This document shows positions 1-46,373 of a DNA stretch of 64,000 bases, in pieces; the stretch's first letter is position 1, and the number at the start of each line of letters is the position of its first letter. Below the pieces are notes generated by a model. The model had not been told where the DNA came from. It made no database searches and saw only the letters and a program-made list of their open reading frames with translations. A program made the translations under genes and the position numbers. The stretch comes from a virus (Duplodnaviria > Caudoviricetes): IMG/VR virus record IMGVR_UViG_3300028172_000069; one strand, 5' to 3'.

Positions 1-569
1 TTCAGTCCGAAGACGTTCATCACGATTGTGCCGACGGCTTCTTTCTGGAGATCGAGCAACAACTTGCGGTATTCAAGTACGGTGTTTACGGTGTGGATTT
101 CCACGTCCAGTCCTTCCAGACGAGTTTTTAACTCGATCAGGCGTAGCGTTGCGAGCGCTGAACTGTCCGTGACGATGTAGGTCTTTGCCCACTTTTCGTT
201 GTAACTGCTGGCAGCCTTGAGGGCTACCGTGTTGAAGCTGTCTGCACCGATAAGCACCGAGCTGTACTTCGATGGGAAGCCAGTATCGAACTCAGGTTCA
301 CCGAGATAGAGAATCAAACTCGGCTTGCTGCGCTCGACAGCGGCTTTCAGTACGCGCTTCAAACTCTCCCTGGAGTACGCGGAAGTGTCGTAGGTAAACC
401 GACGGGCGTTGAACACGAAGATGTGAGGCTCGCGCTCGACTGCAAGGAGTTGGGCTACAATGGAGTTACCATACAGATCGTGAACCGTTGCGGACTGCAC
501 AACCAGTAGGCTTTGGGCATCTACCGTTAGGCAGTAAATTAGCGAGGCAAGTGCCCAGAGCCCTTTCAT
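1..569 (-). CDS. Partial (runs off window) exported protein with N-terminal signal peptide; resembles periplasmic/ABC substrate-binding fold
   Basis: Hand translation from ATG at 569 (MKGLWALASLIYCLTVDAQSLLVVQS...) stays open to position 1; hydrophobic N-terminus; alpha/beta pattern. Not in the ORF track because it is truncated. Confidence 0.6.
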   Translation of the reverse strand, partial: MKGLWALASLIYCLTVDAQSLLVVQSATVHDLYGNSIVAQLLAVEREPHIFVFNARRFTYDTSAYSRESLKRVLKAAVERSKPSLILYLGEPEFDTGFPSKYSSVLIGADSFNTVALKAASSYNEKWAKTYIVTDSSALATLRLIELKTRLEGLDVEIHTVNTVLEYRKLLLDLQKEAVGTIVMNVFGL

Positions 570-574
570 GGTGT

Positions 575-1402
575 TTACCTTATGCCAATGATCGCCGCAG
601 TGCCGGAGCGTGGAGCGGCGAATGTGATGCGGACATTGTTGCCGTCCAGAGGGATTTGCTCAGCGGGAATCATGTAATCCCCGTTGGGCAACGCGACTGC
701 GATGATGAGGTTCTCAGTACCTAGGTCGTGAGCGATCAGCCACTCCAGGTCCTCATCTTCCTGCGTGTGCAGAAACTTTGGAACACCGTCACCGCCGCCA
801 AGCTCAAGGGCTTTCACCTTGTTCTCAACGGTAGTTGTACGGGTACCCAGGGCACGCACCGAGTTGCGCACACTGGTAAGCTGTTGGTACACGGATGCTG
901 CGAGCGACTGAGCAGCGGACGTCAGCTTCTCAACGAACGAACGAGGCACGGCTTCATCAGCCGCGTAGTCCTCGCTTGTTCCAAGAGTGCGTGGGTACAC
1001 AGGCCCAGTGAAGCGGCCGCCAGTTGCATCGAATGCACCCAGGTCGAATGCCGTCAAGTCGTGCGTGTTGCCGATGTTGCGATTCAGTTCTTGGAAGTCC
1101 TGATCGCTAGGACGAGGCTCGTCCCACATCTGCGCGTTCCAGAAGTTGGACTCCGTTGCCGCAGTCCACGTATGCGTGTGGTTTGCACTCGCACCGCGGT
1201 TGACACGGCGCAGTGCCGTTGACGTACTCGGGTCGATCCAGATGAGGTCCAGTGGAGCCACGACTTCAATCGGCTCCACCTTGCTCACGATGATGTTGAT
1301 GCGGGTTTTGCTTGGCCCGTCTGTGGTAAGCAGCACGGGATTAGAGTCAGTCAGGCCTCGGACTTGCGCTGCCTGAATGAGTCTTGCAATCGGCAGGACC
1401 AT
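575..1402 (-). CDS. Tail/baseplate-associated structural protein
   Basis: ATG at 1402 with GAGG RBS; C-terminal FLHTQ..W.IAHDLG motif typical of phage tail-collar-like proteins; N-terminal domain paralogous to 40420-41064 and the N-terminus of 35832-40406. Confidence 0.65.
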   Translation of the reverse strand: MVLPIARLIQAAQVRGLTDSNPVLLTTDGPSKTRINIIVSKVEPIEVVAPLDLIWIDPSTSTALRRVNRGASANHTHTWTAATESNFWNAQMWDEPRPSDQDFQELNRNIGNTHDLTAFDLGAFDATGGRFTGPVYPRTLGTSEDYAADEAVPRSFVEKLTSAAQSLAASVYQQLTSVRNSVRALGTRTTTVENKVKALELGGGDGVPKFLHTQEDEDLEWLIAHDLGTENLIIAVALPNGDYMIPAEQIPLDGNNVRITFAAPRSGTAAIIGIR

Positions 1403-1433
1403 GGGATTCACCTCGATTTACACTGCGTCTAAA

Positions 1434-1880
1434 TTATCCACAATGGAGAGAGACGAGGTGGTCCCCGATCGCTGTCGCCACTTTCTTGGCATCCTCCTTG
1501 GAGAGTTCCACGAGCTTGAAGCCGCCGGGTACGTAGGCAATCGCACGGACTTGCTTGACGTTGCTGGCGAGGTCAAGCTGGAGTACCGCCAGAGCACTAG
1601 GCTCCAGCGAGTAGCACACATCGTTCACGACAAGGCCAGCAACGATCTGCGAGGCCACATCAGGGCGAACAGGCACGGGCTCCACATCATGCACGGACGT
1701 CTCATGGAGCTTCCCGTCGATGATCCGATAGCGATGTGGGCGTGCGCCAACTTCTTCCTTGGTGCTAATGTCCAGTTCGATCACATGCTCTGTGTCAGGC
1801 TTACCCGTCACAGGGTTGTGAAAGGCAAGAATCTCGCCAGACACGGGATCGTACTCCACGAGGTAAAACGGCATTTCCAT
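1434..1880 (-). CDS. Hypothetical protein, possible tail-fibre assembly factor
   Basis: 148-aa ORF directly downstream of a collagen-like fibre gene, tightly packed. Confidence 0.5.
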   Translation of the reverse strand: MEMPFYLVEYDPVSGEILAFHNPVTGKPDTEHVIELDISTKEEVGARPHRYRIIDGKLHETSVHDVEPVPVRPDVASQIVAGLVVNDVCYSLEPSALAVLQLDLASNVKQVRAIAYVPGGFKLVELSKEDAKKVATAIGDHLVSLHCG

Positions 1881-1891
1881 ACACCACCTCC

Positions 1892-2701
1892 TTAAGGAGC
1901 GTCGCTGCCAATGACGAAGTAGTAGAAGTCCCAGCCGGTGGCAGCCACAGGTTGAGTCCCGCCAGCACCATCGCTCTCTTGTGCAAGCAGCGAGGTGTCC
2001 ACGGAAAGCTCTGCGTTACCCTTGTTCACCCGATCAATCCGCACAGCGTTCTTGACGTTGCTCTTCGGGTTAATGAACTGGATGTGCATTGTCCGAGGCT
2101 TGTCGGTGATGAACGACTCTGGGAAGATCACGCGCTGGAAAAGCGCAGCCTCGGTCGACGTGAAGCGGCCCCAGCACTTCAAGCTGAGGTTGTCGAATCG
2201 CTCGTAGGCATCGACTTCACCCACGCCGAACGTTGGCGTCTTACCATCTTGCCCTGCTGGGCCAGTCGGACCGGTGGGACCCGTCGGGCCAGTAGCGCCC
2301 TGAACACCGGGACCACCACTCGAACCTGCAGGACCGGTTGCACCCTGAGGACCCGGATCACCTTTGGGGCCAACGCAACCCTGATCGCCGACACGGCCGT
2401 CTTTACCGTTACGACCGTTCGAGCCGGGTTTGCCTTGAGGGCCAGTGGGACCCGTAGGCCCCACTCCCACCGACTGCGTTGTAAGGAAGCCACGGATCAG
2501 CAGCGTACTGCGATCCGCGCGGTTGAGAACGAGTGAGCCCGTCTCCGAGTCATAATCACCGGAGACGATTGTGGTATCACCGTTCAGATTCTCGTCATCC
2601 TGAAGCTCCAGCTCATTGCCGTTGAACTTCACAATGTCGTTGGTATCACCCGTGCCCGGATCGAGCAGCGGCAATGGCACCCTGGTCAGTCTACCAGTCA
2701 T
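1892..2701 (-). CDS. Collagen-like tail fibre protein
   Basis: About 25 Gly-X-Y triplets (GPTGPTGPQG...); N-terminal module shared with three other collagen-like genes. Confidence 0.8.
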   Translation of the reverse strand: MTGRLTRVPLPLLDPGTGDTNDIVKFNGNELELQDDENLNGDTTIVSGDYDSETGSLVLNRADRSTLLIRGFLTTQSVGVGPTGPTGPQGKPGSNGRNGKDGRVGDQGCVGPKGDPGPQGATGPAGSSGGPGVQGATGPTGPTGPTGPAGQDGKTPTFGVGEVDAYERFDNLSLKCWGRFTSTEAALFQRVIFPESFITDKPRTMHIQFINPKSNVKNAVRIDRVNKGNAELSVDTSLLAQESDGAGGTQPVAATGWDFYYFVIGSDAP

Positions 2702-2708
2702 AGTCTTC

Positions 2709-2879
2709 TCACTTCACGTTGAGCCATTTGGTGTTGTCCGAGGAGCGCACCTTGGTGTTGAGCGGGTTCATCTGAATCCACGACTTGTTGTCGCTCGCCC
2801 TGACTTTCCAACCCAGCTTGTCAAAGTTTTGAATCCACGGGTCGCTAACGGACTGTCGAACACGGAGTCTGACTGCCAT
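2709..2879 (-). CDS. Small Trp-repeat protein (56 aa), paralog of the N-terminus of the adjacent 1216-aa adhesin
   Basis: ATG overlaps the upstream stop (TAATG at 2877-2881); repeats of (K/R)VR.xxN.xW. Confidence 0.7.
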   Translation of the reverse strand: MAVRLRVRQSVSDPWIQNFDKLGWKVRASDNKSWIQMNPLNTKVRSSDNTKWLNVK

Positions 2880-5800
2880 TATCCGATCTCCCCAATGCTG
2901 TTGGCTTGACCTTTCCAATCTGCTGCTTTGGTCAGGTACTGGACTTGGTTGTTGTAGCGCACGCTGAATCCAGCATAGCCAGGCGTACAGTTCGGGATGT
3001 TCTTGTATCGCAGGATCACGTTGCGAGTCCCCGCGCGTACATCCACAGTGAGTGTTGCCACGCCAATTGGACCAGAGCCCACCTTCTTACAGTCAATGTA
3101 CAACTCATAGTCATCGTCCGAGATAACGGTGATAACGTGCGAGCCGCTGTACGTGAACGGGATGAAGGCTTGCATCAGGTACATGACGTTGCCAGCAGCG
3201 CAATCGAAGTTTGGCTGCACGTGCAGGAGATTGCAGCCATCAGGACCACCAGCGCGCTCGAACACTTGCTCGCTTGGGTTCTGGTTGCAGATCGCGCTGT
3301 CGTCATCCATGATCGTGCCGAAGCCACCAGACTTGGTGATGTTACCCTTCGACGCATTGCCGATGGTCATGCCCACGGTGCGATCAGGTTGCTGCACGTC
3401 GTTACCGAAGACTGGGACACAGACCTGCTTGGAAGTCTCACCCGGTGCGAACGTCACGGTACCCGATGTTGGCTGATAGTCACGCTCCTCAACCTTGATG
3501 CGCAGTGCACCTTCACTACCGCCTGCAGGAATCTTCTCGCAGTGCAGACCATCCCACGCTTGGTGATCGCCCCACGCAGTAATCATGGCAGCTACGCTGA
3601 TAGCACTACGATCCACTGAGCCGTAGAACTCCATCCCGAACAGGTTAGCCAACTGGTTGGCACCAGACTCGAAGACGTAGTGGTCAGTGATGACAACAAG
3701 GCCACCACCGCGCTTAGCGTACTCGGCGAAGTTGGCTACCGAACCCTCCTTCAGGATACCTTCAGCCGCTACACCAGTTGCCGTCACCCGCGAACCCATG
3801 AAGATGATGGTGTCATACGTCAGGAGCTCAGCCAGTGGGATAGCACCCACAGAGTTCCACGCGTACACGTCTTTCATCACAGGCGTGAAGCCAGCAGCCG
3901 TGACAGTACCCGGCAAGCTGATACCGAACCCGTTGGGCTGACTGTCGAGCGTGTAGTTCCCACCAGTCGCGTTGTCGCAGGTAATCAACACCTTGCCTGT
4001 GCGATTGTTGGTGCGCGCAGTCCACTGGATCAAGTTCTTCAGGTAGGTGAATGCAGGTGGCAGACCAATGCCGGACACGAACACGGAGCTGAACGTGGCG
4101 TTTGCTTGCGACTGGGCACAGAAGCCCCAGCTGGTCTGGCCTGTGAATGCGCTCAGGTCAGCATCTGCACTCAGGTCCACTTCGATCTTGGTGCCAGAGT
4201 CCAGTGCAACCGAACCAAAGGGTGAGCAGTAGATCGTGATGATGTTGCAGTCACGCTCAACCCGCACACGGGTCTGCCCACGACCATTCCAGTTCCCGTT
4301 GCCGCCAGAAGTCTTCGTCGCGAGCACCTTAGTAGGTACACCGTTGACAAGCAGCGTCAGATTGAAGTTACCACTACCATAACCTCCCATGCCACCGGGT
4401 ACACGCGATGCAACCAGATGGTAGTTGTCAGCACCAACACGGGCGAACGCAGCTACCAAGCCGATCATATCGTCATCCGCCTCGCCAGACGACAGCGTGG
4501 CCTCAAACGTGTAGCTCATGTACGACAGCGGCGAACAGAACGAAATCATCTTGGAACTGTTCGTGGTCGACTGGATGTTCCCGCTCGACAACCGCCATGC
4601 AGTAGCTTGCGATGCAGCAGGGATTGTGGTAGGGTCCGAGTAATACTCGTCGCCTGCCGTCCGCCACCACGAGTCGAATACGGCCTGACCAGTAGGTGCA
4701 TCCTGCGGCGCCCTGTAGGCATTGTTGTAGAACTTGGGGAACCCGCCATCGAATGCTGCACGACCAACGCCACAGTCCGCGACTGCGATAAAGGGGTTGT
4801 TGAACTCGTCGTTCGCCAAAATCCGGCCTTGGCAGATGAAGGGCTTAGCAGTACCGCCACCAGATTGGTAATCGACAGTCACAGGCATGGACTGCGGCTT
4901 ATCCATAGTCACGGTCCAGCAGAGTTGGGCAGTCTCACCCTCCTTGCCTTCCTTGACAATCGGATCGTCGATGCTGATGTTTGGATCCTCATCACCCGGG
5001 CACGTATGCAGGAACGACCACGAGGTCTTACCGCTGCCAGTTACCCGAATCTGGATCTTCTGACCACCAGCGGGGTTGTAGTTGAAGTACAGCCAGTGAT
5101 CGCCAGTAACAGGCCCACCAGTCGTCGCAACCAACGTACCGCCTTGATAGACGTCCAGCTTATCGGGGATGTTGTACATCTGGTAACGCACACCCACCTT
5201 ACCAGCATTCGGACCCATATCGACATAGGTGTCAGTAACACCAGCACCACCAGACGTCACGGCGCTCTGATCCGAACACGGCCGTGGATCATCTTCACTA
5301 CCCTTCTCGCCCGGACAGGTGATCAGGTAAATCCACGAGGTCCCAGGGTCCCGTGCAGTGATGCGCACCATGACAAGCTGCGACTCGGTAGGCGAATAGT
5401 CAAACTTCACATGGCCTTCGCCTGCCACGTATCCGCCAGTAGACTTGAGCAACCGTCCGTCTTGGAATACTTCGAGCTTATCCGGCTGGTTCCACATCTG
5501 GTAGTGTATGTCTACCAAGCCAGCCTTATCACCCATGGCGTGATAGAACTCAAACGTTCCCAACCCGCCTTCTTTCTTCACCTCGAACGTACCGTGGCAT
5601 GGACGTGGATCAGTGATTTCACCGTCCGTATCGTCGTCACCCACGCACTTCATCTGGAGCGTCCACTTGCTGGCCTTAGTAGCCCTAACCCGGACAAACA
5701 CCAGTGGGTCGTTATTCACCGGCGTGAACACGAACTGCAATACGCCTTTGCCAGTACGCTGCCCACCAGTGCTCGCAATGACCTTGCCGCGGTAGTACAC

Positions 5801-6544: not shown

Positions 6545-7060
6545 TTATGGCTTGACCCACAGTGCCCCAGGGACAACGTGGACGGCAGCATCCAGCACTG
6601 GGTCAGCGGTCTGAATCCAGATTTGAACGACGCCATCCTTGCCATCAGGGCCAGTGGGTCCAGTTGCACCGTTAGGGCCTGTAGCCCCTGGGTTGCCTTG
6701 TTCGCCGCGAGGGCCTTGACGACCGGGAGGGCCAGCTGGGCCTTGGCAACCAGTGGCACCCTTCTCACCGTCAGTACCATTGAGACCATCACGGCCATCT
6801 TGACCTGCTGGGCCAGTGGGGCCTGCTTGGCCAACGCCCATGTCGCTGACAGTGGTGAACCCAGAGAGCTGGAGGCTTTCACCATTGCGCAGGACGAGCG
6901 TCAGGGTACCAGAGGTGGCGTCGTAGTTACCAGCCGTGATGCCGTAGTCGTTCTGGTTGAGGCTATCCTCTTCCACCACGACGTTGTTACCATCGAAGCG
7001 CACGTCACTACCAGAGCGACCTTTGGCATCGAGCAATTTGAGTGGAACGCGAGTCAGCAT
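6545..7060 (-). CDS. Collagen-like tail fibre protein
   Basis: Gly-X-Y run; shared N-module; C-terminal IQTADP...GALWVKP motif. Confidence 0.8.
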
Positions 7061-35814: not shown

Positions 35815-35831
35815 CTGTGATGGTTAACCTA

Positions 35832-38800
35832 TCAAGCGTAAGTAACCTTGAAGGTGACCGCACCCAGGCTATCCCAGTCCGTACGGTACACCAGCCACTG
35901 CTGAGGACCGTTGCCATCGTGGCAATCGTAGGTGACTTCGATTGGGTCGTAGTTGTCGCCAACTTCGCCCTCTGGCGTCCACTGAATACCGCCAAAGCCG
36001 CCCGGTACGTTGATCGCTTGATCGGTGAAGGTCGCACGGCCCAGCGACTTCAAGTGCATGAAGTAGCCATACTGTGCATCGCCGATGTTGATGTTGAACG
36101 TCTCGCCCGAAGTACCCAGCGGCAGGACGTTGGTCATCACCTTGTCACCGAAGTCCTGAATGCCAGACCAGCGAGTGTACGGGATGTTGTACGTCTCGTT
36201 CGTGCCAGTCTTGCCGCCAGTGAAGTCAGTGTCGGAGAACATCGCTACGCCGAAGCGTGGACGATTGTTGCCCGAGACAACGGCTGCTTTCACTGTCAGG
36301 TTCGCAGTTGCCTGCTTGCTCACGCCAGCTGCGGTGTAGTTGAAGGTCAGCACAGTCGCAGTATCCGAAGACACGTTGGCCGCGTTGAAATCACCTTTGG
36401 TCGACTGCGAGAACGAACCGGCCGAAGCAACGCTGGTGCTGTATGTGGCAGTGCTGGTCACATCCTGAGTCGTGGAATCAGTGAAGTTCGCAGTTACCAC
36501 ATACTTGCCAGTGGCGCCCGATGCCAACTGAGTCGGACCCGATACAGTGATCGAAGCCAGCTCAACTGCTTTCTTACCAGTGACCGTCTTATCGGCGGCT
36601 ACGGTGATACCAGCTGCGGTGTAAGTCGCGTGCAGCGGGATTGCAGTGTCAGCACTCAGGTGCTTGACAGCCAGCGTACCATCAGTCGCCAGAGTTGCCA
36701 CAGTGGAGCTGGCAGTTGTCGACCAGGTGGCCAGTACGTCAGAGACGCTGCCGTCAGTCATGGTTACCTTGGCCGAGTAGGTACCGCTGCTATCGCTGTT
36801 CACGGTAGCTGGACCGTTGATAGCGAGCGACGACGGTACTGGTACAACGACGAGCGACACAGACTTCGTGCCGTTGACGGTGCGACCGAACTCGGTATAG
36901 GCGACCTTCACCGTGATGTTGCGGGTAGTGCCACCAGGCTTCTGGTTCGGAGTGAACACGCCAGATGCGTTGATGCTGCCGATTGGATCGCTAGGCGTGG
37001 TGCCTTCAACAGCCCAGGTACCAACTACATCAGCGCTGGTACCGTCAAGGTACGTTACCTTGGCGAGATACTGCGCGCTACCTGCACCGTTCGCAGCGGA
37101 CGAATTCACAGAGTTCGGGCCGGTGATCGCGATGGACGCTGGATAGTTCGTCACGTCATGCACAGCGATGGTCTTCGTCGCGGTAACCGTCACGCCGTCC
37201 AGCGTATACTTGCCAGTCAGGATGGTGTTGATGTTGGTACCCGACTTGTTCTCTTTGGCAGTGAACAGGCCGTTCGCGTCTATGGTACCAGCAGTGCTGG
37301 TGTTGCTCGACAGCCACTCGGTAGCTGGCATCACGACAGTGGTCTGGTCTTCGAAGGTGACGCGCAGTTCGTACTGCTCGGTCTTCAAGGAGTCCACCAC
37401 GGCACCACCGGTGATGCTTGCGCTCACTGGATAAACGGTCTTGTCGCGGACAGTCACGTTCTTCTCAGCGCTCACGGTGATACCAGACGCGGTGTACGAC
37501 GCGCTTACCTTGGTGCTATCATCAGCCTTCAGGTTTGCGTTGGTCGCCAGTGCACCAGTCGTTGGGTTGATGACACCAACAGAGGTCTTCGAGGAAGCCC
37601 AGTCGATTACACCTACCAGCGAGCTGGTACCGTCGGTGAACGTCACGCGCAGCACGTAGTTGCCAGTGTCACCTTCGTCGAGGAAGTCAGGACCTTCTAC
37701 GACAGCCGAAACTGGGTAGTTGGTCGAGTCAGTCACGGTAACGTCCAGCTCGGCACCTACAGTCTTGCCAGCCGCCGTATACGACGCAGTGATCTTGGTC
37801 ACCTTGTTGCCAGTGGTGTCCAGACCGTTCAGCACACCAGTGTTGGCACCGATGGTCGCAGTCGAGATAACCGACGACTTCCAGTTGGTGACTGGCACGA
37901 TGGCCTTGGTCGCATCGGTGAAGGTCACTTCCAGCTGATACGTCTGGCTGGTGTTCTCAGGCAGAGAGTTCGGACCCAGGATACGCGCACTGCTTGGGTA
38001 AACAGTGGTGTCCATGATGGTGATAGTCTTCGCCGAAGCGGTGACAGTCTTGCCATCGAGGGTGTACGACGCGGTCAGCGACGCTGGGGTGTTGACGTCC
38101 ACGTTTGCAGGCGCAGTTACGCGACCCGAAGTGTTGACGCTGGCACCGTTGCCGCCAGTGATCGCCCAGTTACCCGAACGGTTCGAAGTGGTACCATCAG
38201 CAAAGGTAACTGCCAGAGTGTAGTCAGCAGTCGAGCCTTCGTTGATAGTCGCCTGGCCGTTGATGACGGCGCTCACCGGGTAGTTGGTGATATCGCGGAC
38301 GGTAAGCAGCATGTCCGCAGTCACGGTGCGGCCGTACTTGCTCCACGACGCGGCCACAGTAGTGGTACCGTTCGCTTGCAGGTTGACAGCAGCAGTCACC
38401 AGGCCGTTTGCAGCACCGATCGTTGCAGCACCGCTGTTGGTCGAGGTCCAGTTGGTCACTGGCTCGTTCACCTTGGTGCCATCGAGGTAAGTAACCTCGA
38501 ACGTCAGGGTCTGCGTGGTGTTCTCGTTCATCTGGGCGTTGCCCACGACGCGAGCGCTCACCGGGTAGTTGGTGATATCCTTGATCGTGACTTCCAGCTC
38601 GGCGGTTACAGTCTGGCCGAAGGCGGAGTACGATGCAGAGACCTTACCCTTGGTGTCTTGCTGCACGTCGGTAGCTGCGACCAGCTGACCGGTGTTCTTG
38701 TTGATCGTACCCATCGCAGGGTTGGACAGAGCCCAGTTGCTGACGGTGACAACGTTGGTGGTGCCGTTGCTGAACGAAACACGGAACTGGTACTGCGTCA

Positions 38801-40406
38801 CGGTGTTTTCGTTGATTGCCGCCGAGCCGAGGATCACTGCGCTACGTGGGTAGACAGTGGTGTCCTTGACCAGAATCTGACGGCTGCCGTTGACGGTACG
38901 ACCTTCCAGGGTGTACGAAGCGGACAGCGTGGTAGCCTTGTCCTCGAACAGGTTGTTCGGTGCCTCGAAGACGCCGCTGGACGGGTTGATGGTGCCAGCT
39001 TCTTCGTCGCTCGAACGCCAGTCGGTGACTGCAACGTCCTTCTGGGTGCCGTTGGTGAACGTCACGCGCAGAGTGAAGTTGGTCGAGGTACCTTCGTCTA
39101 CTTCTGCAGGACCAACGATCACAGCCGACGAAGGGTAGATGGTGGTGTCGATGCAGCGCACGGTCAGGTTCGCGTCCTTGGTCACGCCGTTGAAAGCGTA
39201 GGTCGCAGCGATGGTCGTGGTCTGATCGGTAGTCAGCTCGCCAACTTCAAGCACACCAGTCTTGCTGTTGAACGTGCCAGCGCCAGGGTTGGACGAGGTG
39301 AAGGTGGTTGGAGTAACACCGGCGCTGGTGCCGTCGTCGAAGTGCGCGATGACCGAGTAGGTCGCAATCGAGTTCTCTTCCAGCTCGTTGACACCCACCA
39401 GTTCGATGCTGGTGAGCACCAGTTTGATGGTCTTGTCGACGATGGTGATATCCACGTACTTCACGCGCAGCTGGCCACTTTCAGGATGAGTCCAGCGCAC
39501 CTCGATGCGCAGCACTTGGTCCTCGTCAATGTCCAGCGACTGGAAGATACCAGTCTGGTTGCTGATGGAGCCGTACGCACCGTTACCGATGACAGCCCAC
39601 GAACCTTGCACGTTGTTCAGCACGCTACCGTCGCTGAACTTCGCATTCGCCTTGAAGGTGAACGGTACGGTCTCGTCCAGCGTGTTGCCTTCTGGGCCAA
39701 CGATTTCCAGTTCGTCGAAGGTTGGACCGTCGTAAACGAGGTCAGCCTTGACTGGGCGACGCCACTCACCGATCCACTCACCGTCTTTAGCACCTGGGCC
39801 AGTGATGGTCAGCACTTCGCCTGGCTTCGGCGTGTTGCTGGTACCAACTTTGGCGAGCCAGGAGTTGACGCCCGTTGCGCCGCGAATCATGGTGATCGGC
39901 AGCTTCGGGTGAGTGTGTGGAAGGGGATCACGCGCATCGCTCATACGCGGATCGTTACCGCCGACAACCACAGGGCTGTCTTGATCGGGCGTATATTCAC
40001 GGTTCAGGATTACGAGGCCACGAACGTCGAGAGTCGCAGCACCTACCTGCGGAACGTCTACTTCACCGAGGTTGAAGCCGCTACTGAAATCCCAATATTG
40101 CTGCTCTGCGATCAGGTCCTCGAAGGTGTCGAGTTCCTGCCAGGTGTTACGGAAGCCCACGGAAGGCAGCGCCGAAGTACGACGCAGGACCTTACCATAG
40201 GAAGCGCTGTCTGGATCAACGACGATCCAGCTGACGTTGAACGGCAGGGTGACGTTGTTGGGTTCCATGAAGGCAACCACAACAATCATGTTCTCACCAT
40301 TGCCGAGCGGCAACTGCACGGGGATTGGGTTCTCCCGTGCAAGGTTGCGGTAGTCAGCGAGCGCCACGGTCTGAGCTACAAACTCAGCGAGTGTTGGCGT
40401 TGGCAT
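35832..40406 (-). CDS. Large tail protein with about 12 Ig-like repeats
   Basis: 1524 aa; repeats of T.YP.SA.I.G...(V/L).E......L.VTF.DGT; shared N-terminal domain; C-terminal GGFGG/GGWDG-type domain. Confidence 0.8.
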   Translation of the reverse strand: MPTPTLAEFVAQTVALADYRNLARENPIPVQLPLGNGENMIVVVAFMEPNNVTLPFNVSWIVVDPDSASYGKVLRRTSALPSVGFRNTWQELDTFEDLIAEQQYWDFSSGFNLGEVDVPQVGAATLDVRGLVILNREYTPDQDSPVVVGGNDPRMSDARDPLPHTHPKLPITMIRGATGVNSWLAKVGTSNTPKPGEVLTITGPGAKDGEWIGEWRRPVKADLVYDGPTFDELEIVGPEGNTLDETVPFTFKANAKFSDGSVLNNVQGSWAVIGNGAYGSISNQTGIFQSLDIDEDQVLRIEVRWTHPESGQLRVKYVDITIVDKTIKLVLTSIELVGVNELEENSIATYSVIAHFDDGTSAGVTPTTFTSSNPGAGTFNSKTGVLEVGELTTDQTTTIAATYAFNGVTKDANLTVRCIDTTIYPSSAVIVGPAEVDEGTSTNFTLRVTFTNGTQKDVAVTDWRSSDEEAGTINPSSGVFEAPNNLFEDKATTLSASYTLEGRTVNGSRQILVKDTTVYPRSAVILGSAAINENTVTQYQFRVSFSNGTTNVVTVSNWALSNPAMGTINKNTGQLVAATDVQQDTKGKVSASYSAFGQTVTAELEVTIKDITNYPVSARVVGNAQMNENTTQTLTFEVTYLDGTKVNEPVTNWTSTNSGAATIGAANGLVTAAVNLQANGTTTVAASWSKYGRTVTADMLLTVRDITNYPVSAVINGQATINEGSTADYTLAVTFADGTTSNRSGNWAITGGNGASVNTSGRVTAPANVDVNTPASLTASYTLDGKTVTASAKTITIMDTTVYPSSARILGPNSLPENTSQTYQLEVTFTDATKAIVPVTNWKSSVISTATIGANTGVLNGLDTTGNKVTKITASYTAAGKTVGAELDVTVTDSTNYPVSAVVEGPDFLDEGDTGNYVLRVTFTDGTSSLVGVIDWASSKTSVGVINPTTGALATNANLKADDSTKVSASYTASGITVSAEKNVTVRDKTVYPVSASITGGAVVDSLKTEQYELRVTFEDQTTVVMPATEWLSSNTSTAGTIDANGLFTAKENKSGTNINTILTGKYTLDGVTVTATKTIAVHDVTNYPASIAITGPNSVNSSAANGAGSAQYLAKVTYLDGTSADVVGTWAVEGTTPSDPIGSINASGVFTPNQKPGGTTRNITVKVAYTEFGRTVNGTKSVSLVVVPVPSSLAINGPATVNSDSSGTYSAKVTMTDGSVSDVLATWSTTASSTVATLATDGTLAVKHLSADTAIPLHATYTAAGITVAADKTVTGKKAVELASITVSGPTQLASGATGKYVVTANFTDSTTQDVTSTATYSTSVASAGSFSQSTKGDFNAANVSSDTATVLTFNYTAAGVSKQATANLTVKAAVVSGNNRPRFGVAMFSDTDFTGGKTGTNETYNIPYTRWSGIQDFGDKVMTNVLPLGTSGETFNINIGDAQYGYFMHLKSLGRATFTDQAINVPGGFGGIQWTPEGEVGDNYDPIEVTYDCHDGNGPQQWLVYRTDWDSLGAVTFKVTYA

Positions 40407-40419
40407 AGATGATCTCCGA

Positions 40420-41064
40420 TCAGTTCTGGATGTCCGAAGTGGTCAGCTTGCGCCACCGGGCAGTAGTCGCGCTATCTGCAACCAAGGCGGCGCCCGGAAC
40501 TGGCTGTTCACTACCCGAGACAGTCACGACGCCATTGGCAGTCTTGATCTGGGTAGCTGGCACTTCTTCGTGGGTGTGCGCTTTCGGCGTACGGGCATCG
40601 GAGAGACGCGGGTCACCTTCAGCCACGGCCACAGGGTTGCTCGATACCTGTGGAGCATACGACAGGCGAGCGACGCCCATGATCGAAGTGCTGGCGGCAG
40701 GCACCGGGTTCTGCGTGGTCAGCAGCGCGGTATCGGCGTCATCGTAGAACTGGGTGACGAACACCTCGTCGTAGGTCTCGATGATTTCCCAGGTATGATC
40801 CCGGCCGGTGACCGTGTCAGCTTCCTTGGAGACGCGACGCAGAGCCTTGCGGTAGTTCAGGCTCAGCGGGTCGAAGTCGATCCAAGTCACGTTCAGAGGC
40901 AGCACGAGGGTGCTTGGCTCTTTCTGCGCGCACGCGATCACGGTCACGGTACGGTTGGTTGGATGCGAGAGGCGCACAACGATTGGGTTGAGTGCGTCCA
41001 GGTTCTGGAGATTGGCGGCACTCTGCAGGTCGTCAATCAGAGTTTCCAGGCGTTTTTCAGACAT
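40420..41064 (-). CDS. Tail protein, paralog of the N-terminus of 35832-40406
   Basis: LPLNVTWIDFDP...KALRR; DPRLSDARTP..HTH..PAT motif shared with the downstream gene. Confidence 0.7.
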   Translation of the reverse strand: MSEKRLETLIDDLQSAANLQNLDALNPIVVRLSHPTNRTVTVIACAQKEPSTLVLPLNVTWIDFDPLSLNYRKALRRVSKEADTVTGRDHTWEIIETYDEVFVTQFYDDADTALLTTQNPVPAASTSIMGVARLSYAPQVSSNPVAVAEGDPRLSDARTPKAHTHEEVPATQIKTANGVVTVSGSEQPVPGAALVADSATTARWRKLTTSDIQN

Positions 41065-41075
41065 TGCAATGCCCC

Positions 41076-42719
41076 TTAGTTTTCGTCGAAGTACGTGCCA
41101 GTCGGCATGATGTGCGAGGTGAGGTGGACGCGCTTGGCTGGGATCACTGGATCGAGGTACACGTCCAGCATCAGGTCACCATTGGCAATGTCGGCTGCAA
41201 CGTTGTTGCGGCTGTCACACACGGCCTCGAAATCATACAGACCCCGACCTTGTTTGATCGGACGCAGGAAGTCGCCACAGATGTTCACCAGCGACAAGCG
41301 AGTGTAGCTGTCGTTGGGGTTGAAGTTCTCAACGGTGCACGCCGAAGCAATCGACTTCTTGACGTAGTTGACCAGACGGCGGACGTTGATGTTGGAGAAC
41401 GCAGACGCGAACGCTTGCAGAGTCTCCTGGCCCATGATGACGTAGCCACGACCCGGGATGTTGCGAATCGGGTTGATGTGGGCAGCATCGAGAGCGTCAC
41501 GCGCACCTTGGTTGTACTTGGTACGGATGCCGGTGATCTTGATGGTGCCGCGTGCCAGACCAGCAGGGGCGAACCACACCGCACGTTGGTGATCGGTGTA
41601 GGCCATCGCAGCGCACACATGACCAGACGGCGGAATGAAGATGTACTTGTCGTTGTACGTGTCGCGGATTTGCACGAACGGCGCGTACAGGGCTGCGTAG
41701 CTGCTGTCCACGTTGAGCGTGTTCACGGAGTAGTTCACGGCACGTGCCGCTTCGTATTCCTTGTCCGGCACGTCGAGCACCGCCAAGCAGTCAGCACGGT
41801 TCTCGGAAATGCTGACCATCTTGCGCTGGATCGCTGGAATGGTGTAGCCAGCGTTGCACAGGATGTTGACGTCCACGATTTCCGCGTCGGCGAACTCTTC
41901 CCAGGCCGCGATGATCTGCGCGTCAGTTGGGCGAGTACCGTCGCTACCGCCTTTGATGAACTCGAACGCTTCCTTCTTGATCTTCACAGGACCGCAGAAG
42001 GAGTTGTGCTTGACACGGATGTACTTCGAGGACAGGTTGATCGCATCCTCGATGAACATCTGGTTGCCGTTGCCGTCCAGCTCGTATTTCCGGGAGACGT
42101 AGAAGCTCTCCACAGGACGGCTGTTGGCGTTCTTGTAGTTCAGGTAGACGTCCACGTAGAACTTGTACGGATCGTAGTGGCGCTCGTCGCTGATGTCCAC
42201 ACCTGCTGGGCATGCCGGACGAATCTTGATGCTCAGTTGGTCGTTCCACTCGCCTGGGTTGGACGCAACGAAGTATGCAAGGATGCGCTCAACGCCAGCC
42301 TGGTCGGCGGTGAAACCGAGATTGTTCAGGGGATCGTACACGCCCAGAGGAGTGTTGCCACCATCGTCGAACACGGTGACGCGAATCTCAGGGATGTTCT
42401 GAGCCGGGTCATCCACCGTGAAGTATGCACCGGCGGTGAGAGCGTCTTTATTGACGACCCGCAGGAACTTCAGGCGTTTGGTTTGACCCAGGGCTTGGGC
42501 GGCACAGTACAGCGCGAAGCCGTACTTCTGGGCATTGGGTTGCCCAAAGTTGGAACGCAGGTCTTCGTTGTCAAACACATCGGTGATAACACCGACAGGC
42601 CCGATGGACGCTTCACCTACGACGCCGACGATCGAAGTCGCTGCGGCGGTTGCACGGGTGGACATATCCGTTTCGATCGGATACACACCAGCGCTTGGAT
42701 GCACTGCTTTACTGACCAT
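41076..42719 (-). CDS. Contractile tail sheath protein
   Basis: GVYPIETDMS...GVVGEASIGP; PPSGHVCA; VWFAPAG.ARG; INPIR..PGRG.VIMGQET; INVRRL. Confidence 0.95.
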   Translation of the reverse strand: MVSKAVHPSAGVYPIETDMSTRATAAATSIVGVVGEASIGPVGVITDVFDNEDLRSNFGQPNAQKYGFALYCAAQALGQTKRLKFLRVVNKDALTAGAYFTVDDPAQNIPEIRVTVFDDGGNTPLGVYDPLNNLGFTADQAGVERILAYFVASNPGEWNDQLSIKIRPACPAGVDISDERHYDPYKFYVDVYLNYKNANSRPVESFYVSRKYELDGNGNQMFIEDAINLSSKYIRVKHNSFCGPVKIKKEAFEFIKGGSDGTRPTDAQIIAAWEEFADAEIVDVNILCNAGYTIPAIQRKMVSISENRADCLAVLDVPDKEYEAARAVNYSVNTLNVDSSYAALYAPFVQIRDTYNDKYIFIPPSGHVCAAMAYTDHQRAVWFAPAGLARGTIKITGIRTKYNQGARDALDAAHINPIRNIPGRGYVIMGQETLQAFASAFSNINVRRLVNYVKKSIASACTVENFNPNDSYTRLSLVNICGDFLRPIKQGRGLYDFEAVCDSRNNVAADIANGDLMLDVYLDPVIPAKRVHLTSHIMPTGTYFDEN

Positions 42720-42727
42720 GTTAGGTC

Positions 42728-42845
42728 TCCGTCAACAGTTTCTGAATATAGTTGGTATGGAAACACAGGACAACCGTCTATGGTACTTGGCCACGTGACT
42801 GACATTGTACGCTGTAAATTAGCACACCGTATTCAGGTTGACGGA
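42728..42845 (-). promoter_or_regulatory. Long rod-like 5' leader hairpin that pairs the sheath RBS and contains a candidate late promoter
   Basis: Nested inverted repeats on the minus strand: UCCGUCAAC/GUUGACGGA, CUGAAUA/UAUUCAG, GGUGUG/CAUACC, UACAG/CUGUG, ACAAUGUC/GAC(G)GUUGU; TAATTTA at 42815-42821. Confidence 0.7.
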
Positions 42846-42849
42846 AACG

Positions 42850-42871
42850 AAAAACGGGGCACTAGGCCCCG
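42850..42871 (-). terminator. Rho-independent terminator ending the replication operon
   Basis: CGGGGC-CTAGT-GCCCCG-TTTTT; the loop contains the stop codon of the J-domain gene. Confidence 0.85.
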
Positions 42872-43611
42872 AGTTTTTGCTTCAAGCGAACGATATAGTC
42901 GTCCACGAATGTTTTGAATGCCACCTTGGCATCGTATTGGCGCTTCTGGACATGGAACTGGAGAACCGTGTAGAGCTTGTGCATGGCAGTTGCCTGCATG
43001 TCCAGCGTCAGGTTACGGTGCTTCTCCTCAACAACATGGCGCATATCCTTGGAGAGTTTCTCCTCTTCACCCCGAACGTACAGCGCACGGATGTAGGCGG
43101 TCTCCAGATCGTATGGGTCCTTCCGAGCGTAGGCATCCTGGGCCATGTTTAGGATTTCGCGCAGCTTGGCAGTCTCCGTGTAGGAGAATCGCTTGCACTT
43201 ATCTGGATGGCACATCTGGCATAGGCGTCGGTAAGTCGCACGGATGTTCTCCGTCTTAAACTTCTCCAGACGCTCCTGCCGATTCTTCTCTATCCGTGCC
43301 TGCATGGCCTCATCAATCTCGGCCTGTGCCAGTTCCTGCGCTTCCAGCTCTTTACGCAAGGCATCGGCGTCTTCACGGAGTTCGTGGCTCAGGTCGATCA
43401 CACCACTTACTGGAACCACTGCACCGCCGATCGTACCGTGCTTAGGTGCGGACTGTTCGTCCACCATCTGCGCAGTGATGGCTCGGTTCAGGTCGTCGAT
43501 GACTGCTGCTTCGACTGGGTAGTGTGGAAGGTAAATGGCATACACCCTTTCCATTCCACGTTGGGCAGAGTTGATCTGCTCAACCATTTCGTCGATTTCG
43601 TCTAGTAACAT
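42862..43611 (-). CDS. J-domain (DnaJ-like) co-chaperone
   Basis: IRATYRRLCQMCHPDKC: helix II plus HPD motif; coiled-coil flanks. Confidence 0.8.
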   Translation of the reverse strand: MLLDEIDEMVEQINSAQRGMERVYAIYLPHYPVEAAVIDDLNRAITAQMVDEQSAPKHGTIGGAVVPVSGVIDLSHELREDADALRKELEAQELAQAEIDEAMQARIEKNRQERLEKFKTENIRATYRRLCQMCHPDKCKRFSYTETAKLREILNMAQDAYARKDPYDLETAYIRALYVRGEEEKLSKDMRHVVEEKHRNLTLDMQATAMHKLYTVLQFHVQKRQYDAKVAFKTFVDDYIVRLKQKLGA

Positions 43612-44391
43612 TTAAATGTCCAAGATCGAGGCCTTCTGCTCAGCACTGAGGTAGAAGGCGTATTTGAGAGGTAAGCGCACGCGCTCGGCGAAAAAGGTGA
43701 CTGGGTCGATGCCGTTTACCACGACGATCTTCGGGATGTTGTTGAACTTCTCCAGCAAGTCCCGCAGCTTCTCCAGTTTGGTACGGCTGCTGTCAACACC
43801 AACGTTGGTGATGACCAGCATACTCATGTTCTCGGGTTCGCGTGCATCGCGCAGTGAATCCCACTGGTTGCCCATGAGCGGGTGCCAGAGTGGATATGCA
43901 CGACCACGGTGAACACCCTTCATCTGCGCGTCAATCGCACGGTTCATGAAGTTGGCTGCAAGCACCTTGGCGCGCACGTCGCTCGGGTAACTGCCAATTG
44001 CCATCGTGTAGTTGCCGTGCAGAGGATTGTCCAGCACCTTCTGGATGCCGTTGATCTGCTTCTTCACGCTGATGGATCGCAGAACGAAACCTTCAGGTAA
44101 CCACGTGATCGAACTCGGTGCCAACTCGATCTGGTTATTCTTCACCAGGTTCTCGATGTTGCGCACGACTGGCTTGATCCTTATCAGCGCTTCCTCAACT
44201 TGGAACGGAGAGCGAGCGAGGCTAAACGCATGACCATCGACGCCGCGCGACTTCAAGAGGTTCTGACGTTGCGTGTCGAACTTGAAGTCCATCCTGATAT
44301 CGGATTCGGACGTTGGTGTAGCTCGCTTGGAGGGCGGCAGCTCTGCTTGCAGATCGCTGTCCAAGTTCTTTAAGAAATCTTTTCTGGACAT
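43612..44391 (-). CDS. DnaC/IstB-like AAA+ fold protein with degenerate Walker motifs
   Basis: Strand/helix order MAIGS..(no GKT)...MLVITNVG...KLRDLL...PKIVVVN resembles DnaC; GAGG RBS. Confidence 0.45.
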   Translation of the reverse strand: MSRKDFLKNLDSDLQAELPPSKRATPTSESDIRMDFKFDTQRQNLLKSRGVDGHAFSLARSPFQVEEALIRIKPVVRNIENLVKNNQIELAPSSITWLPEGFVLRSISVKKQINGIQKVLDNPLHGNYTMAIGSYPSDVRAKVLAANFMNRAIDAQMKGVHRGRAYPLWHPLMGNQWDSLRDAREPENMSMLVITNVGVDSSRTKLEKLRDLLEKFNNIPKIVVVNGIDPVTFFAERVRLPLKYAFYLSAEQKASILDI

Positions 44392-44905
44392 AGTCCTCGG
44401 ACCTTATGACGTGTAGTTCGTGTGCGTCCAACAACGCATCCAATTTGGCGTCGTTTATGTTAGCAGGACGCACAGGGCAGTAGACTATCTCAGGTCTGTT
44501 TACAGTACGCTCAAATTCGGACAACGTCATTACGGTCAGTGCGTGTCCGTTGAGATAGGTGGCGAGTGCCTTCCGACCACTAGGTGTTTCGCAAATGAAC
44601 ACGCAATCACGCGCTCGGCTAAGTGCATCCCGCACCATGTATTGCCAAACGCGCGTGTGCGATGCCCACTCTTGCATGAAGCCACTGAGGACAGAAAGTT
44701 CAGCACGAAGATCGAACTTGGCGGGCAAACCACCTAGGGCCATGAACCCGCCGTAGCGATACTCGAAGAACTCACGACCCGAAAGGTCTTCCTCCAAACT
44801 TGGAACGGACGGCTTTGGTGTCTTCCATGAAGGCTTGCTCACCTCCGCCACCGTGCCCACTCCTTCGACTATTGTGTTTGTCCATAAGTATGATGGCGCG
44901 CTCAT
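44222..44905 (-). CDS. Hypothetical protein (both boundaries uncertain; long overlaps with neighbours)
   Basis: Only long minus-strand frame covering 44392-44771; may start at the ATG of MALGG. Confidence 0.4.
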   Translation of the reverse strand: MSAPSYLWTNTIVEGVGTVAEVSKPSWKTPKPSVPSLEEDLSGREFFEYRYGGFMALGGLPAKFDLRAELSVLSGFMQEWASHTRVWQYMVRDALSRARDCVFICETPSGRKALATYLNGHALTVMTLSEFERTVNRPEIVYCPVRPANINDAKLDALLDAHELHVIRSEDYVQKRFLKELGQRSASRAAALQASYTNVRIRYQDGLQVRHATSEPLEVARRRWSCV

Positions 44906-46373
44906 GGGCTACTTCCGTAGGCTTGTGTTTGAATTCCATGCACTGCTTGTAGGTTGACACAAAGCAACCAAGCGGCATTCCAATGTGCTCGTCCACAAAG
45001 AGTCGAATACCTGGTGGACGCTTGCCTTCAAACGGAGTCAGGATACGCGAACTCTCCTGCTTCCAGTTGGGCTTGTTGTTGATTGGCATGACGCAGTAGA
45101 TCATCGACCAACGAGGCACGTTCAGACCGCGCTGCATCAGAGAGCGGATGCCGATTACCACACGCACCTTACCAGACTTCGCATCGTCCAGTACGGCTTT
45201 GCGTCGAGTAATGTCTGCCTTGTTCTTCGCACCACCAGTGAACCCGTCAGCCACTTTCTTGCCGTACTGGTCGTTAATCATCTTGACCAAGTCCCAGACG
45301 TGCTCTTTGCGATACACTGGGATCAGCAGGTTGTGGCCTTTCTCCAAGTCCTTGAGCACCCAGTCAACGATGAACTGGTTGCGCTTCTTGTGGTTTGTCA
45401 GGAACGACACGCAACGGGTGAAGCCTGCACGACCCTTGTAGGCAGCTTTGGTCTTCACGAAGTCCATTGGGTGGACAAACACTTGAGCCTGCAACTGGTC
45501 ACGTTCAATCAGTGCAGTCACAGGCCCGACGATCTGCTCCACGATCTTGTACTTGCCGTCCTTGCGATCATCGGTACCGGTTGCACCAATGCGGATGCGC
45601 TGACGGAGCTCGTTCAAGGTCTTGGAATATTCACTCGCACCGGAGCTGTGCACCTCGTCAATGAACACCAGACCAAAGTTCTTGTTCAGGAGCTTGAGCA
45701 GCTTCTTGCCCTTGTCGCTCAGGAACGTCTGGTAGGTGCAGACGATAATCTCGAAGTCCTCGAAGTCCTGCGGCTTCTTGCCAAAGCCGTAGAGTTTCTT
45801 CTTGTACTTCTCCTGCAGATCAGGCAGGTTGGTGAACTCGGTGATGTGGTCGACGAACTGCTCCAGAAACTCTTTCTGGTCAGCAATCACGGCAATACGA
45901 TACTTGTACTGCGTGATGCCAGTGTACAGCATGGTCGGCGTCTTACCAGAACGCGGTGGTGCCTTGAGAACACCGTATCCGTGCTTCTTCAAGAGCTTGA
46001 TCGCAGGCTCCTGATAGTCGTACGGTTTGAAGCCGACCATCTTGACGTTATAACGACGTTTAGCCCGGGTCCGTAGGTCACGAACGCCGAGCTCCTTCAA
46101 ATCTAGGCCAAAGACCTTTGCGATGTTCTTGCGATCACCCAACGGGAAGCCGAAGTACTCGGTGTCACCTTTGATTTCACGGTTGACCGTTACCGATTTG
46201 CCCTTGTAGGCTTCGCACTTGTTGCAGATGTAGTTGTGGCGCTCAGGACGATTTTCACAGCGTCGGCAAGCGGATTCCTCGTAGAACCGATGGATGTAGC
46301 GCTTCTTTACTTCACGCTCGTCCACCAAATGCGATGGCACGAACATCCGTTCGCGGACAATGATTTCGCCCAT
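44772..46373 (-). CDS. Superfamily II DNA helicase (UvsW-like)
   Basis: Motif I APPRSGKT, II DEVH, III ATGT, V GLNVP, VI QESSRI. Confidence 0.9.
   Translation of the reverse strand: MGEIIVRERMFVPSHLVDEREVKKRYIHRFYEESACRRCENRPERHNYICNKCEAYKGKSVTVNREIKGDTEYFGFPLGDRKNIAKVFGLDLKELGVRDLRTRAKRRYNVKMVGFKPYDYQEPAIKLLKKHGYGVLKAPPRSGKTPTMLYTGITQYKYRIAVIADQKEFLEQFVDHITEFTNLPDLQEKYKKKLYGFGKKPQDFEDFEIIVCTYQTFLSDKGKKLLKLLNKNFGLVFIDEVHSSGASEYSKTLNELRQRIRIGATGTDDRKDGKYKIVEQIVGPVTALIERDQLQAQVFVHPMDFVKTKAAYKGRAGFTRCVSFLTNHKKRNQFIVDWVLKDLEKGHNLLIPVYRKEHVWDLVKMINDQYGKKVADGFTGGAKNKADITRRKAVLDDAKSGKVRVVIGIRSLMQRGLNVPRWSMIYCVMPINNKPNWKQESSRILTPFEGKRPPGIRLFVDEHIGMPLGCFVSTYKQCMEFKHKPTEVAHERAIILMDKHNSRRSGHGGGGEQAFMEDTKAVRSKFGGRPFGS

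Follow-up and report, generated by a model that had tools for sequence, protein, structure and literature searches.

In bacteriophage T4, the genes e (lysozyme), soc and 49, the I-TevI intron open reading frame (ORF) and segB, as well as mobE of phage Aeh1, are preceded by hairpins that sequester the ribosome binding site (RBS) and contain a late promoter (PMC3014915, PMC2988022). In the T4 cases the Shine-Dalgarno (SD) sequence and/or the AUG is helical in the long early or middle RNA, and a late promoter consisting of a -10 element only, located in the DNA of the 5' strand, gives rise to a translatable late RNA; the arrangement is kept in related phages (PMC3014915, PMC2988022). The present analysis concerns the leader of a tail sheath gene in a 64,000-nucleotide (nt) stretch of virus record IMGVR_UViG_3300028172_000069 (Duplodnaviria; Caudoviricetes), hereafter the window. 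The window corresponds to positions 13005-77004 of G000, a virus record of 103 kilobases (kb) with ~75% DNA identity to the Pseudomonas jumbo phage PaBG. Sequence comparison and folding models suggest that this leader is probably a transcript-length-dependent translational lock on the sheath gene of PaBG-like jumbo phages.

The leader resembles the T4 locks in that the SD is predicted to be paired in a helix on the long transcript and in that a candidate -10-only promoter lies within the 5' strand of the structure, between its helical segments H3 and H4 (Table 1). It differs from them in several respects. PaBG and Lu11 are jumbo phages of an unrelated family. Their closing helix spans ~110 nt, enclosing the promoter and a long leader, whereas the T4 structures are compact local hairpins. 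The 5' arm is built on the tail of a terminator, and the targets are tail sheath genes. The promoter word in these phages, TAATTTA, also departs from TATAAATA, the consensus that gp55/gp33 read at T4 late promoters. Thus, the proposed PaBG-type lock works like the T4 cases but falls outside their late regulon.

On the minus (mRNA) strand the leader folds into an irregular hairpin, or rod, of 124 nt that reaches from G42848 to C42725, begins 6 nt past an intrinsic terminator and contains ~45 base pairs in ~7-8 helical segments. The rod alone has a predicted energy of -41.5 kcal/mol (z -3.72), and the 155-nt stretch that includes the terminator (42717-42871) reaches -52.9 kcal/mol (z -4.16), a value equalled by none of 200 dinucleotide shuffles. 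The basal helix of the rod, H1, is 12 base pairs (bp) long and takes up all four bases of the GGAG Shine-Dalgarno sequence, which stands 7 nt upstream of the sheath AUG; the AUG itself is unpaired in the rod fold. When the same region is folded within a 531-nt read-through context, the inner nine pairs of H1 form with probabilities (P) of 0.74-1.0, and the successive SD bases are unpaired with P of 0.00, 0.07, 0.26 and 0.00.

A first-pass annotation, prepared from the letters of the window, had described a rod directly behind the terminator on the minus strand at 42717-42871, with GGAG 7 nt ahead of the sheath AUG and TAATTTA within the 5' arm, and the sequence and fold bear out each of these points. 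Its single long irregular hairpin and its pairing of the SD also stand, with different dimensions: the structure folds as 124 nt rather than 118 (42728-42845), consists of ~7-8 segments rather than five to six stacked helices, and is closed by an outermost helix of 12 bp on all four GGAG bases rather than of 9 bp on GGA. The precedent that it invoked, that of T4 e, soc and 49, was stated correctly (PMC3014915, PMC2988022).

The heptamer TAATTTA is very probably a -10-only phage promoter. Nineteen sheath-1 leaders were compared, 18 of them metagenomic or from the PaBG clade and one from Lu11, with sheath identities ranging from 100% to 47%. TAATTT(A/G) is the sole invariant word among these leaders (TAATTTG in one lineage) and is found 69-102 nt ahead of the AUG, nearly always right behind a terminator. 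The G000 record contains 7 copies of TAATTTA against 1.7 expected, all of them on the coding strand and 6 outside called ORFs, and the PaBG genome contains 14 copies against none of the reversed word. All 14 are co-oriented with the local genes according to the PaBG annotation, and 11 are placed 31-102 nt before an annotated start; the starts that follow the word belong, among others, to the two sheath paralogs, the PAAR/baseplate operon and the first gene of the lysis region. Three of the 14 fall in divergent spacers (gp156/gp157, gp249/gp248 and gp297/gp296), and because no co-directional RNA enters such spacers from upstream, a promoter is favoured over an RNA processing site. Across 22 TAATTTA sites there is no -35-like consensus, only the weak flanks (g)(c)TAATTTA(c/a)(t). 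PaBG encodes a sigma70-family factor of its own, the sigma-like protein being gene 118 (PMC7412058).

Other signals were considered in the leader. The 12-mer repeat GTGCTAATTTAC is not enriched (5 matches against 2.1 expected), and only the heptamer recurs. A host-type promoter in the 3' arm, TTGTCC-17-TATATT, was rejected because neither its spacing nor its -10 hexamer is conserved in PaBG, L005, L068 and L069.

The full rod is found only in a subclade around PaBG, which comprises the window, PaBG itself and the relatives L065, L077, L079, L066, L005 and L041. In the seven sequences other than the window the rod energy is -38 to -45 kcal/mol. In all eight members the sense fold exceeds the antisense fold in stability, by 4-15 kcal/mol, and each rod contains 4-7 G.U pairs; this strand asymmetry, together with the G.U pairs, indicates a structure at the level of RNA rather than DNA. 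Inspection by eye suggests concerted change in the variable parts of the rod: the stretch that separates terminator from promoter and its partner before GAAAC, the ACAG:CUGU helix, and also the apex. Because the 5' arm is rich in indels and was misaligned, RNAalifold on four sequences was of no use, and energy-based swap tests took its place as well as that of column-wise covariation. When pre-promoter segments were exchanged among six lineages of the subclade, the native combinations gave an interaction sum of -104.9 kcal/mol against a mean of -91.7 kcal/mol, a result that only 3 of the 720 permutations matched and that none of the 265 derangements reached.

The predicted consequence for the SD depends on which RNA is considered. 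The short RNA was modelled from an assumed start 7 nt past TAATTTA. In seven of the eight subclade members, the energy needed to open the SD is 6-12 kcal/mol for the long RNA against 2.5-5 kcal/mol for the short one. In the short RNA of the window, the four bases of GGAG are unpaired with P of 0.40, 0.42, 0.83 and 0.01, compared with the lower values given above for the long RNA. The short RNAs fold no better than their shuffles (z ~0).

Outside the subclade the architecture is simpler. Distant lineages have a short spacer between terminator and promoter and no rod, and in most of them the bases just upstream of or overlapping TAATTTA are complementary to the SD region in sequences that are unrelated to one another (closing helices in Table 1). 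The swap test across 16 lineages gave an interaction of -178 for the native combinations against -102 +/- 12, and an SD-to-AUG opening cost of 163 against 109 +/- 8; none of 100,000 permutations was as good by either measure. With a single representative per group, p was 2-4e-4 for interaction and 2-6e-5 for opening, and with the PaBG clade removed it was 1.8e-3 and 4e-4, respectively. A further swap among 12 independent leaders, including those of Lu11 and of the second PaBG sheath gene, found none of 300,000 permutations as good as the native set, and the native partner took first place among the 12 in seven leaders and ranked second or third in another two. The leader of that second sheath paralog, gp093, is a miniature of the sheath-1 layout, with a terminator, CCUGUCG abutting TAATTTA, a small hairpin and CGACAGGAG, and its native partner ranks first in the swap tests.

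These wider-family comparisons are stronger evidence than that from within the subclade. The putative lock principle is wider than the PaBG subclade; the long rod itself is confined to it. The T4-like switch suggested by the first-pass annotation is thus supported in silico by the promoter-like distribution of TAATTTA, its invariance in the leaders and the co-variation of pre-promoter segment and SD across independent lineages.

Within PaBG the lock is restricted in scope. Among 12 PaBG genes with an upstream TAATTTA, a specific lock, in which the native partner ranks first, was found only at sheath 1, sheath 2 and gp089, and all three lie directly behind a terminator. The lock as a general rule for PaBG TAATTTA promoters was rejected (overall p = 0.04, and 0.14 without sheath 1). 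Because it is found only behind terminators, the lock appears where co-directional upstream transcription can enter. The sheath-1 locus has such a setting: local gene direction is on the minus strand, and further genes upstream of the sheath gene on the same strand include a DNA-polymerase piece and a UvsW-like helicase, both replication genes, in an order that matches gp276-gp273 of PaBG. With replication genes upstream and the sheath gene downstream, the element marks the point where a replication operon gives way to a virion gene.

These observations are consistent with the following mechanism. RNA initiated upstream in the replication operon and escaping the terminator would carry the segment 42823-42848, which would pair with the leader, place the 12-bp helix over the SD and block ribosomes from starting. 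Later, RNA polymerase would be directed to TAATTTA, probably by a phage sigma factor, and would initiate near 42808-42810, inside the hairpin, to produce an RNA that lacks the 5' arms of H1-H4 and has H5-H7 at its 5' end. The SD of this short RNA would be much more open, and sheath protein would be made. The rod would be long because the lock must enclose both the promoter and a leader of ~100 nt, the inner helices serving to join the ends. We infer the start site from the position of the motif, and likewise draw the temporal class of both RNAs and the effect on translation from the sequence.

Several observations weigh against such a lock. Covariation, which the first-pass annotation had named as a check, gave a divided answer: the energy-based swaps are positive, but column by column the signal is weak. 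With the minimum free energy structure of the window laid on a MAFFT alignment, 84.1% of cells are paired compared with 82.1% in shuffles (10/500), and 41 of the 500 shuffles equal the covariation score of the subclade; of the 45 pairs, 20 are invariant, and the column-wise signal is weak because so much of the rod does not vary. Conservation of the structure in related phages is likewise partial, holding for the full rod in the PaBG subclade and failing in the distant lineages. Even within the subclade, L066, L077 and L079 carry uncompensated mismatches in the inner part of H1, and in the wider family L067, L069, L075 and perhaps L070 have no specific lock in the swap and opening tests. Half of the anti-SD arm is a generic U-rich terminator tail, which pairs easily with purine-rich SDs. 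The short RNA still requires 4-6 kcal/mol to open, and its internal GUUUCC...CAAC can pair with the SD. The terminator directly upstream should itself limit read-through. Finally, 20 soil metatranscriptome runs (2018-2019) hold window positions 40500-45000 only as identical contigs of 22-79 kb with a word depth of ~900-3200; these are silent on starts, ends and strand, do not allow transcription to be inferred, and could reflect an abundant phage or DNA carry-over.

Long irregular intercistronic hairpins beside an RBS in phage polycistronic RNA are also familiar from the T7 intercistronic R sites and the lambda N leader. RNase III-type sites of this kind comprise about two turns of uninterrupted or coaxial double-stranded RNA, are conserved and yield cleavage products. 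The rod may be such a site, at which read-through RNA would be cut and either destroyed or relieved of SD pairing, an activity that could coexist with the lock; the intercistronic position and the long, near-coaxial stack of helices with internal loops and ~45 pairs agree with this. As an explanation of the element it is nevertheless unlikely, in that Lu11, L068, L071, L073, L076 and PaBG sheath 2 keep an SD-closing helix of 7-14 bp and little else, which is short for RNase III. The features conserved are TAATTTA and the pairing of the SD, and reduction to a short SD-closing helix in relatives, with an invariant promoter word inside, sets the element apart from the T7 and lambda sites.

A second alternative holds that TAATTTA is not a start, and that the whole rod is the real leader of the sheath mRNA, transcribed by read-through or from a more distant upstream promoter, and a translational operator opened by a factor such as a protein, temperature or ribosome standby. 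The unusual length of the leader (69-102 nt), a CA-rich motif whose conservation is not accounted for by pairing and the partial closure of the short RNA all speak for it. However, the 6 nt between terminator and rod leave no space for another promoter, TAATTTA is invariant and behaves as a promoter elsewhere, including in divergent spacers, and a highly expressed virion gene would have to rely on leakage through a terminator; an operator of this type is quite improbable. It is very improbable that the inverted repeat acts in DNA, as operator-like arms or as an extrudable structure around the promoter, since the arms differ in every lineage and so offer no shared protein site, the SD region of the mRNA invariably supplies the 3' arm, and the G.U pairs and the greater stability of the sense strand in all eight subclade members speak for RNA. 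Equally remote is a lack of any function, with U-rich terminator tails pairing by chance with purine-rich SDs, for although GUUUCC is a generic terminator tail in the PaBG-like family and some lineages show no lock, the swap tests reject chance pairing, and the U-tail is not part of many of the closing helices (GUCAAC:GUUGAC, CCUAUUC:GAAUAGG and CAUAACUUAAU:GGUUAAGUUAUG, for example).

The translational lock, as the preferred reading, would draw part of its 5' arm from a sequence that is common in these phages. The tail TTTTTCGTTTCC recurs behind other terminators of the PaBG-like family, and the extended tail TTTTTCGTTTC(C/T) is common to the intrinsic terminators at G000 6920, 55847 (window 42843) and 80254 (window 67250) and, in PaBG, to those before gp089 and gp294. 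A different type of junction is seen on the minus strand at G000 6860-6960, outside the window, where the SD and AUG of the following gene (…CTCCCTTTTTCGTTTCCACGGAGCCGCCCATG) come no more than 12 nt behind a terminator and TAATTTA is absent.

Members of the PaBG subclade have an additional 20-35 nt between the terminator and the promoter, which pair with a CA-rich motif of the leader and so zip the ends of the rod together. This motif, CCAU(A/U)CCAAC(U/C)A, persists in leaders from that of the window to those of Lu11 and L074 even though its pairing partner changes or is absent. The window version, CCAUACCAACUA, is the sole non-coding copy in G000, where CCAACTA occurs elsewhere only as coding Thr-Asn-Tyr codons. 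The motif may serve to enhance translation or to bind a factor. A more elaborate design, common to PaBG/Lu11-type jumbo phages, may be envisaged, in which the terminator tail becomes an anti-SD arm wherever a virion gene follows immediately on an earlier operon, as at both sheath paralogs and gp089, and in which a dedicated activator or enhancer of translation would dock on the CA-rich motif CCAU(A/U)CCAACUA, masked in the long RNA; such a two-layer switch is doubtful.

Additional roles for the leader were considered. The first-pass annotation had taken the length of the rod to suggest a processed small RNA or a protein-binding element, and this proposal found no support: the rod shrinks to a single closing helix in relatives, no 3' boundary of a small RNA is apparent, the inner hairpin is not unusually stable, the leader ORF is unconserved, and a scan of positions 41000-45000 against Rfam 15 with E up to 10 gave no match in 42700-42900. 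A leader peptide encoded by a 62-amino-acid (aa) ORF from an AUG at 42805 was rejected, as this ORF has no SD, changes frame in PaBG and lacks the AUG in L077. A stabilising hairpin at the 5' end of the short RNA is not claimed; 11 of 18 leaders begin with a hairpin, but of ordinary stability (mean z -0.6).

Table 1. Elements of the sheath leader, the adjoining genes and the corresponding helices in related leaders (window positions unless another sequence is named).
Feature	Position	Strand	Sequence	Remark
Tail sheath gene, 547 aa	41076..42719	-		AUG 42717-42719; Pfam Phage_sheath_1/1C, PHROG 23
H2 3' arm and H1 3' arm	42725..42748	-	UAUUCAG (H2), GUUGACGGAGAC (H1)	5-nt bulge AAACU; SD GGAG at 42727-42730
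CA-rich leader motif	42749..42760	-	CCAUACCAACUA	pairs with GGUGUG in the long RNA
Inner hairpin	42770..42815	-	H4 5' arm ACAG, H5 ACAAU:GUUGU, H6 GUC:GAC, H7 GUGG:CCAU, apex	
Candidate -10-only phage (late) promoter	42815..42821	-	TAATTTA	predicted start ~42808-42810
H2 and H3 5' arms, upstream of promoter	42823..42836	-	CUGAAUA (H2), GGUGUG (H3)	H2 is the variable, co-adapted segment
H1 5' arm, anti-SD	42837..42848	-	GUUUCCGUCAAC	first half is generic terminator tail
Terminator U-tract	42849-42854	-		
Intrinsic terminator hairpin	42855..42871	-	CGGGGCCUAGUGCCCCG + UUUUU	6 G-C pairs, 5-nt loop
Upstream ORF, 249 aa	42862-43611	-		weak DnaJ match; UAG stop inside terminator loop
Closing helix, L068			GUUUCCGU:ACGGAGAC	
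Closing helix, L071			CUCUAAAGUUUCUU:AAGAAACUUUGGAG	
Closing helix, L073			CAUAACUUAAU:GGUUAAGUUAUG	
Closing helix, L074			GAAAACA:UGUUUUC plus CUUUU:AAAGG	
Closing helix, L076			CCUAUUC:GAAUAGG	
Lu11 sheath leader	NC_017972.1, L084:827-961		CCCCUUUAUG just before UAAUUUA, CAUACAAGGGG over SD	terminator present; -38.3 kcal/mol, z -4.9
PaBG second sheath paralog, gp093	NC_022096.1 64866-64960 (L080)	-	CCUGUCG:CGACAGG	

A scan of genome contigs for relatives found a single distant relative. Some further features of these genomes were observed in passing. Very long antisense "shadow" ORFs face real genes in many places in the window, as at 35817-40412 on the plus strand over 35832-40406 on the minus strand; real frames have a GC content of ~0.7 at third codon positions (GC3) and ~0.55 at first positions (GC1), and in the antisense shadow ORFs this pattern is reversed. 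In PaBG (NC_022096.1), at 234907-235279 on the minus strand, a TAATTTA overlaps the stop of gp206 and faces 370 nt without an annotated gene, a stretch that may contain a small gene or RNA missing from the annotation. For gp233, the start given in the annotation precedes a conserved GCTAATTTAC by 28 nt (PaBG NC_022096.1 205235-205269; window 535-541, minus strand), and the true start of that gene may be further downstream.

To our knowledge, the gene regulation of the PaBG/Lu11 jumbo phages is essentially undescribed. The analysis provides this group with a candidate late promoter word, TAATTTA, and with a candidate post-transcriptional safeguard against sheath synthesis from read-through RNA. 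Polysheaths form by self-assembly of sheath proteins such as T4 gp18, and early or unbalanced sheath synthesis would plausibly be harmful for this reason. PaBG, which grows on P. aeruginosa PAO1, and Lu11, which grows on P. putida, are both cultured phages, and the lock is thus directly testable. The solution known from T4, a promoter nested in the hairpin that closes the RBS, appears to have arisen in an unrelated phage lineage and, judging from the leader sequences, to have been kept by co-variation in at least 8 independent leaders.

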